UHGV virus genome: UHGV-0129090
Length of the DNA stretch: 34,582 nt
DNA from: a virus
Direction: 5' to 3' (one strand)
Shown here: positions 3,134-3,200 of the stretch, in pieces
Position numbering within the stretch: position 1 is the first letter of the stretch
How the letters are laid out: each line of letters opens with the position of its first letter
The notes under the pieces: generated by a model
Told to the model about the DNA's origin: nothing
What the model saw: only the letters and a program-made list of their open reading frames with translations
Databases searched by the model: none
Program-made: the position numbers and the translations under genes

Positions 3134-3200
3134 ATAATAGACCCTATTTTTTATATTTTATAGTTACTATTATTTAGTATTAGTTACTAATCGAATTATA

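Follow-up and report, generated by a model that had tools for sequence, protein, structure and literature searches.

The closest described counterparts of the elements analysed here are operators at phage and bacterial promoters. In the lambda switch, CI and Cro act on OR1-OR3, three near-palindromic operators of 17 bp that lie between the divergent promoters PRM and PR, over -35 and spacer sequences, with neighbouring sites about two helical turns apart. Phage P1 distributes a single operator word over unlinked transcription units, with one protein, C1, serving early as well as stand-alone genes; the C1 operators are asymmetric 17-mers. The small p4 protein of phi29 uses repeated inverted-repeat sites at divergent promoters, where it represses early transcription and activates a late promoter devoid of a -35 element. 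Finally, MetJ and the Arc and Mnt proteins of P22 read short palindromic boxes of 8-9 bp arranged in tandem, the met-boxes being contiguous.

Here we compare with these systems a locus in a 34,582-nucleotide stretch of viral DNA (UHGV-0129090, hereafter the window), in which an initial annotation had pointed out the word TAGTTACTA in spacers of the late and the early region and had proposed that it may bind a phage-encoded regulator. The copies of this word are placed non-randomly, are palindromic, are paired at 19-20 bp and are conserved in position, with a coordinated base change, among related prophages.

Results

A prophage family without cultured relatives

The window corresponds to a prophage of ~33 kb, with a GC content of ~38% compared to ~48% in its flanks, which interrupts a yegD-like Hsp70 gene (halves at 2..676 and 33768..34532) and encodes a large serine recombinase (32206..33804, minus strand). 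A relative from Enterobacter kobei (L011) also adjoins an Hsp70-like fragment. Nearly all prophage genes are on the minus strand and are read leftward. Among 50,697 deposited phages no DNA match to the prophage was found, and the closest protein match of the large terminase has 37% identity. Among complete E. coli genomes (n = 5426), only two carry the prophage. Neither of two scans of GTDB species returned a match, and a metagenome scan added members only of lineages already known. Nearly all early proteins are orphans in Pfam and PHROG scans, and Rfam gave no match anywhere in the window. The family is temperate and uncharacterised, without a cultured or annotated relative.

A nine-base palindrome concentrated in non-coding DNA

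The late pair of TAGTTACTA, 20 bp apart, and the pair at about 28699-28745 are exactly where the initial annotation placed them. Six copies are present in the window, four outside genes (Table 1) and two within genes, at 12349 and 16115. Since TAGTAACTA is the reverse complement of TAGTTACTA, the box is a 9-bp palindrome, TAGTnACTA, and because the word is palindromic apart from its centre, copies described as 'direct' and 'inverted' differ at the centre base only.

Across the whole window, TAGTTACTA occurs six times against 0.89 expected (six reached in 0/100 shuffles), the palindrome is in modest excess (6 against 1.56 expected; six reached in 2/100 shuffles), and the broader word TAGTAnCTA is found 14 times against 3.1 expected. 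The informative signal of the motif is its location in non-coding spacers, not the whole-window count. With long ORFs taken as genes, non-coding DNA amounts to 2266 bp, or 7% of the window, and contains four of the six copies where 0.11 are expected, a number reached in none of 5000 dinucleotide-preserving shuffles. The corresponding Markov/Poisson P is 3.6e-6, and 9e-4 after correction for all 256 palindromes of the 4-N-4 type, whereas coding copies are at chance level (2 versus 1.37 expected). A de novo count in non-coding DNA likewise returned TAGTnACTA as both the commonest 9-mer and the commonest 4-N-4 palindrome. The comparison to a shuffled background suggested by the initial annotation hence turned out in favour of the motif. 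A literature search for the word yielded nothing relevant.

Repeated palindromic sites placed non-randomly in control regions are what operators would provide. The least probable of the explanations that we weigh is composition, i.e. that AT-rich spacers, rich in the stop codons TAG and TAA, repeat a word by chance. The spacers indeed have a GC content of 16-34%, the transcribed strand reads TAG-TAA-CTA, the motif was chosen post hoc, and the whole-window palindrome test is only marginal. However, the spacer shuffles never reach four copies, the excess survives the 256-palindrome correction, and independent lineages show, at aligned positions, either the box itself or a variant differing by one base, as detailed below, so that chance is largely refuted.

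Boxes at the predicted early promoters

The early control region (28559-28799) lies between the early operon on the minus strand and a single plus-strand gene, which encodes a 60-aa protein; the promoters of the two are predicted back to back. All promoters in this work are consensus-scan predictions, and the overlap of boxes with them is predicted in the same sense. Three boxes, O1-O3, are found in this spacer, with centre-to-centre distances of 19 bp (O1-O2) and 37 bp (O2-O3), compared to 20 bp for the late pair. The first cistron of the early operon is a hydrophobic ORF overlapping the start of the 97-aa gene; its peptide is conserved, at 85% in the metagenomic relative L025 and as MAITITKEHV... 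in Enterobacter.

Table 1. Positions of boxes, predicted promoters and neighbouring genes in the window.
Feature	Position	Strand	Remarks
88-aa gene	2867..3133	-	N-terminal membrane helix and coiled coil
-10-like hexamer	3150..3160	-	TAAAAT (3160..3155) or TATAAA (3155..3150); read from sequence
Proximal late box, TAGTTACTA	3161..3169	+	abuts the -10-like hexamer
Distal late box, TAGTTACTA	3181..3189	+	TAGTAACTA on the transcribed minus strand
215-aa gene	3201..3848	-	DUF8377/phrog_4524
Three lipoprotein/secreted genes	26587..26967, 26027..26419, 25631..26017		behind the inverted repeat
Inverted repeat, arms AATAGCTACTAC/GTAGTAGCTATT	27032..27072	.	holds two TAGTAGCTA boxes (27038-27046 and 27058-27066)
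73-aa helical protein	27726..27947	-	candidate regulator by co-occurrence only
65-aa basic protein, MRISCIAGGLITEVFDDHNRKVG...RKRVNIKL	27944..28141	-	candidate regulator
97-aa early gene	28265..28558	-	orphan family; four clusters in 5.8 billion proteins
28-aa hydrophobic ORF, MTFTITKEHVLFVV...	28551..28637	-	first early-operon cistron; previously unlisted
Predicted early promoter, TTGACG-17-TAGTAT	28667..28695	-	consensus scan, 9/12 matches
O1, TAGTATCTA	28680..28688	.	one mismatch to the palindrome; within the 17-bp spacer of the early minus-strand promoter
O2, TAGTTACTA	28699..28707	.	TAGTTACTA on plus strand; 3 bp upstream of the early promoter -35
Predicted promoter of the divergent 60-aa gene, TTGATA-16-TATACT	28732..28759	+	consensus scan, 10/12 matches
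O3, TAGTAACTA	28736..28744	.	TAGTTACTA on minus strand; overlaps -35 and spacer of the plus-strand promoter
Divergent 60-aa gene	28800..28982	+	74-95% identical across lineages

The close E. coli relatives (L001-L004) are too similar to reveal constraint, the control region being conserved no better than its flanks. More distant lineages are informative. The 97-aa family has two diverged members (45% identity) in syntenic prophages of E. kobei and E. hormaechei, and in these Enterobacter prophages (L011/L012) the positions of O1 and O2 both read TAGTAGCTA, again 19 bp apart (alignment A9). In 20 kb, this one-base variant is found four times where 0.35 are expected, in each case in a non-coding spacer. 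Contigs with variant early boxes are ABVCUL010000015.1 of E. kobei (GCA_042311515.1, prophage at ~79-95 kb), DASHUN010000001.1 of E. hormaechei (GCA_034310165.1, prophage at ~401-417 kb) and, for type A', ERZ1027065.1-NODE-1 and OJJY01000028.1. Only a partial box, CAATAGCTA, is located near the O3 position, with an offset of ~2 nt, and no sigma-70-like promoter is predicted around the Enterobacter boxes. L025 and L026, as well as L127 and L128, form a metagenomic lineage, and the 60-aa protein of L025 has 88% identity to that of the window. Here the predicted promoter TTGACT-17-TAGTAT carries an exact TAGTAACTA in its spacer (TTGACT-g-TAGTAACTA-tcgatca-TAGTAT) where the window reads TAGATACTA; in L025 no box is found at the O2 or O3 positions. 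The O1 position is accordingly kept in all three alignable lineages, with the columns TAG...CTA of A9 invariant.

A further lineage (L115/L129) displays TAGTAACTA, 12 nt, and then TAGTAGTTT, overlapping the -35 element of TTTACA-17-TATGAT, and the boxes of L115 lie upstream of a small hydrophobic ORF. Boxes overlap consensus-predicted promoter cores in the window, L025 and L115, and none is predicted around those of Enterobacter. We note that the ORF behind the L115 promoter encodes 18 hydrophobic residues and is analogous to the 28-aa ORF of the window. In L030, the related word TTAGCTAWT is found nine times where 0.36 are expected. The matches cluster in early spacers; of the nine, counted strand-wise, six are in or at the edge of an early spacer of ~90 bp (9465-9560), and one copy is in the divergent region (9954-9962). 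This cluster looks like a variant operator array of a related lineage. Counted together with AATAGCTA, the same spacer holds four to six copies, upstream of a 63-aa homologue of the 65-aa basic protein. L027-L029 have a different control region and no box. Lastly, L014-L018 contain a copy of TAGTTACTA at 8251 (8249 in L018) within an apparent ORF read by eye, probably a methyltransferase, and we take this copy to be due to chance.

At homologous positions the sequence is hence kept or co-varies, as at O1 in three lineages and at O1 and O2 of Enterobacter, where both have become TAGTAGCTA. Judged from these comparisons, the box or a one-base variant recurs in the early promoter region throughout this phage family, and it changes coherently between lineages, much as operators of different immunity types do.

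The same comparisons bear on the nature of the binder. Recruitment by the prophage of a transcription factor or nucleoid protein of its Enterobacteriaceae hosts would agree with the lack of a recognisable phage regulator, and E. coli and Enterobacter have most global regulators in common; the GT-n-AC core of the box also seems reminiscent of GntR-type operators. Nevertheless, we regard such a host factor as very improbable. The box differs between lineages in closely related hosts (TAGTAACTA, TAGTAGCTA, TTAGCTAWT or none), and a box that changes from lineage to lineage is typical of phage-specific immunity, not of a conserved host factor. Moreover, we know of no E. coli regulator with a consensus matching the box; those of TrpR, LexA, CRP, FNR, ArcA and OmpR do not appear to fit.

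The late pair and the lysis end

The late pair is located in the spacer 3134-3200. Because the genes there are on the minus strand, the pair follows the 215-aa gene and precedes the 88-aa gene in the direction of reading, so the initial annotation, which had the pair upstream of the 215-aa gene, was mistaken on this point. The 88-aa protein has a weak DUF2730 match and weak matches to Rz-like and holin-type PHROGs, and in relatives the homologous proteins carry the flag DUF2730/XhlA. Behind the gene is a bidirectional terminator (2845-2871), common to the convergent endolysin gene. The latter (2387-2839, plus strand) is one of only two plus-strand prophage genes at that end, and is divergent from a gene for a GIY-YIG (SegE-like) nuclease (1909-2346, minus strand) that is truncated here and encodes 307 aa in relatives.

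On the transcribed strand, the late spacer reads TAA-tataattcgat-TAGTAACTA-atactaaataa-TAGTAACTA-TAAAATATAAAAAATAGGGtctattat-ATG. No -35 element is recognisable at the late site, and a consensus scan called no sigma-70-type promoter on the minus strand of 3134-3200. A good -10 with a poor or absent -35, as found here, is the configuration of activator-dependent late promoters. We considered an early-to-late switch protein, an early-operon product that would bind the same boxes, shut the divergent early promoters and activate an 88-aa gene promoter lacking a -35, similar to p4 of phi29 or to the late activators of Mu and P2, in line with the coordination of late and early genes envisaged by the initial annotation. 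With TATAAA as the -10, the distal box would be centred near -42, a class II activator position, and the Enterobacter boxes without consensus promoter would fit activator dependence as well. We nonetheless hold this switch to be doubtful. An activator site is expected upstream of or at the -35 with the spacer left free, but the proximal box, the only late box conserved in other lineages, abuts the -10-like hexamer and sits in the spacer (~-17 to -22), where a bound protein would occlude the promoter. In addition, scans of 20 proteins (the early-region genes and the genes around the late site) against Pfam and PHROG revealed no homologue of late activators of the Ogr/Delta, Mor/C or p4-like types.

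The main late spacer (23456-23743), which precedes the packaging and structural genes, argues in the same direction. It contains no TAGTAnCTA box, and the motif consequently does not mark 'late genes' in general. The proposed coordination of late and early genes is therefore supported only in part: boxes are present in both regions, but the distal one of the late pair lacks conservation, and the main late spacer is devoid of boxes. As an observation in its own right, this 288-bp spacer upstream of the small terminase gene has three copies of CAGTACCGAA and an inverted repeat of 16 nt (23481-23496 and 23684-23699); it may represent a cos/pac site or the region of a late promoter.

Conservation of the late spacer was assessed in ~50 IMG/VR loci anchored on the 215-aa gene, ~45 of which have a spacer leading into an 88-aa homologue. 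Relative loci extend only 10 kb from the anchor gene, and contigs with both ends are of the window type only, except L048/L123, which start inside the 227-aa gene. The late spacer of the ~45 relatives is short and AT-rich, and usually free of boxes (no box in ~40 related phages). Both boxes are found only in near-identical phages (L003, L004 and L031), and the distal box is absent in L008/L009 and most other relatives. The proximal box and the -10-like hexamer are kept together in L034 and L036 (exact) and in L042/43 and L064 (as AAGTAACTA), all with the form (T/A)AGTAACTA and, 0-2 nt further on, TATAAT, TAAAAT or AATAAT. Their 215-aa proteins are 61-83% identical to that of the window, and the upstream half of the spacer is unalignable in these lineages. 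E. kobei-type loci have AAATAGCTAAA at the place of the late box, with the AATAGCTA core that is common to the Enterobacter boxes.

Retention of box plus hexamer next to a replaced upstream half could also be expected of an inherited promoter or module-boundary sequence that has no dedicated binder, e.g. an AT-rich, UP-like element or a linker at mosaic junctions, and all sites are indeed at module borders (tail/lysis, the early divergent region, and the 227-aa gene/moron cassette). We judge this origin to be quite improbable. The distance from box to -10 varies between promoters, being 0 nt at the late site as against 7 nt for O1 and 9 nt for O3, and for this reason the box is not a fixed promoter element. 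Nor would such an origin account for the palindromic form of the box, for pairs spaced at 19-20 bp, or for the coordinated replacement of A by G in both boxes of Enterobacter.

A related inverted repeat and further elements

The inverted repeat at 27032-27072 is located between the 227-aa gene and the three lipoprotein/secreted 'moron' genes, with a conserved TATAAT (27020..27015, minus strand) 15 nt downstream. Its arms are unchanged in Enterobacter (type B) and differ by one base in L030 (type D), and the loop measures 9 nt (N9 in the window), 12 and 13 nt across three lineages. As RNA, the repeat would form a stable, AU-rich hairpin of -16.5 kcal/mol (z = -6). It lacks the GC-rich stem and U-tract of an intrinsic terminator, and the terminator scan was silent here. 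Invariant arms with varying loop or spacing would be compatible with recognition of each arm by its sequence, or else with a structured RNA.

Two other non-coding elements were observed. Upstream of a ribbon-helix-helix gene, a conserved unit (31760-31892, minus strand; also in L011 at ~2630-2860, L012 and L027) consists of a strong predicted promoter (TTGAGA-18-TATAAT with TG), a leader of ~100 nt containing GATAAATAACTATGTA, and an intrinsic terminator with U-tract (31782..31765). It has no Rfam match and is a candidate small RNA or attenuator. A non-coding stretch of 481 bp (29841-30321) contains direct and inverted repeats of the CCAATAGCCCATAA type (30164-30322), which may represent an origin (iterons) or another regulatory array.

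Candidate proteins for reading the boxes

A lambda-like switch would have a recognisable helix-turn-helix or ribbon-helix-helix repressor gene next to the boxes, and none is adjacent. Pfam and PHROG detected no DNA-binding domain in the neighbouring proteins of 60, 97, 65, 73 and 227 aa. The divergently encoded 60-aa protein, considered as repressor, was set aside: it is unlikely to be the specificity determinant because it is conserved at 74-95% identity across lineages while their control regions are unrelated and differ completely. Its AlphaFold2 model is unusable (pLDDT 44). The model of the 97-aa protein (pLDDT 80) has no fold match in the PDB.

The ribbon-helix-helix protein (31562..31714) has a weak RHH_1 match in Pfam and is so annotated in RefSeq, and its gene is 3 kb away, behind its own promoter-leader-terminator unit. 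We disfavour it as the binder, as L011 and L012 have identical boxes but unlike residues on the beta-strand of this protein that is predicted to face the DNA.

Two small proteins of the early operon region are left as candidates (Table 1). The 73-aa protein occurs in lineages A, A', B and D, which have boxes, and not in lineage C, which has none, but it is likewise lacking in E and F, which do have a box, and in L115-L118. Its family has seven relatives among 1.84 billion representatives. An FlhD-like identity was not borne out (weak Pfam match with E = 0.089; hhalign probability 9%), and a profile search of the PDB gave only spurious repeat matches. The 65-aa protein has no Pfam match and no annotation in the RefSeq copies of the prophage. 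Because it is 60-80% identical in the five lineages A, A', B, C and D, its ORF is a real gene missed by annotation.

It is conceivable, and on balance unlikely, that a small phage protein without known DNA-binding fold, such as one of these two, recognises the boxes, that single-base variants (TAGTAACTA, TAGTAGCTA and TTAGCTAWT) define immunity groups, and that early shut-off is coupled to the membrane gene at the lysis end. In this tentative proposal, the groups would partition an uncultured family of E. coli and Enterobacter prophages with serine integrase, two of which interrupt yegD.

Discussion

Based on the placement, symmetry and conservation of the boxes, we favour, at a probability of roughly 0.55, that TAGTnACTA (in its broader form TAGTAnCTA) is a 9-bp operator box for a dimeric phage-encoded DNA-binding protein. 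Repression of the divergent promoters is favoured because the boxes lie inside or beside predicted core promoter elements, and cooperative binding because the pairs are two helical turns apart. We propose that such a protein would operate as follows. Bound to O1 and O2, 19 bp or approximately two helical turns apart, it would sit over the early promoter spacer and over the -35 at its upstream edge, and at O3 it would cover the -35 and spacer of the opposing promoter of the 60-aa gene. Occupancy would exclude RNA polymerase and thus shut both divergent promoters. At the late pair, 20 bp apart and on the -10-like element, this protein would also restrain or modulate the 88-aa membrane gene, which stands alone. 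Binding by a protein, repression as its outcome, and the identity and phage origin of the binder are inferred from this arrangement. Against an operator function stand the absence of O2 and O3 in L025 and the confinement of the distal late box to near-identical phages. Around the Enterobacter boxes, with no promoter predicted there, simple occlusion is not apparent, and transcription of the 88-aa gene may simply be shared with the tail genes.

The suggestion of the initial annotation that the motif may be a regulator binding site is consequently supported in part: such a site is likely, since the boxes are non-random, palindromic, located in spacers on or near predicted promoter elements and kept in relatives, as would be expected of one, and no regulator was recognised among the neighbouring proteins. 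The feature is of a familiar kind, phage operators at promoters, and as such probably functional and not surprising, and it opens no long-standing question. If the boxes are operators, they provide a first handle on the regulatory circuit of an unstudied prophage family. They could then help to capture, by DNA pull-down or DAP-seq, a regulator that is possibly of an unrecognised fold, and could sort related prophages into immunity types.

Compared to the described systems, the early cluster is similar to the lambda switch in having three near-palindromic boxes between predicted divergent promoters, at their predicted -35 and spacer elements, with a distance between neighbouring boxes that would allow cooperative binding of dimers. 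It differs in the length of the boxes (9 bp compared to 17 bp), in the absence of a flanking CI/Cro-like helix-turn-helix gene, in a divergently encoded 60-aa protein that does not track the operator type, and in the presence of the same box 25 kb away, at the lysis end. MetJ, Arc and Mnt are comparable through their short palindromic boxes, and the prophage encodes a ribbon-helix-helix protein, but met-boxes adjoin each other, unlike the boxes here with their spacing of 19-20 bp. The p4 protein of phi29 is the nearest analogue of the idea put forward by the initial annotation, yet no protein here has sequence or domain similarity to p4, the proximal box in the spacer argues for occlusion, and the main late operon has no box. 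With P1, the prophage has in common the use of one operator word at unlinked transcription units, early and stand-alone; it differs in lacking a C1 homologue and in having the word at only three loci. Taken as an analogy, the overall arrangement resembles an operator cluster of the lambda type with a dispersed extra site, as in P1.
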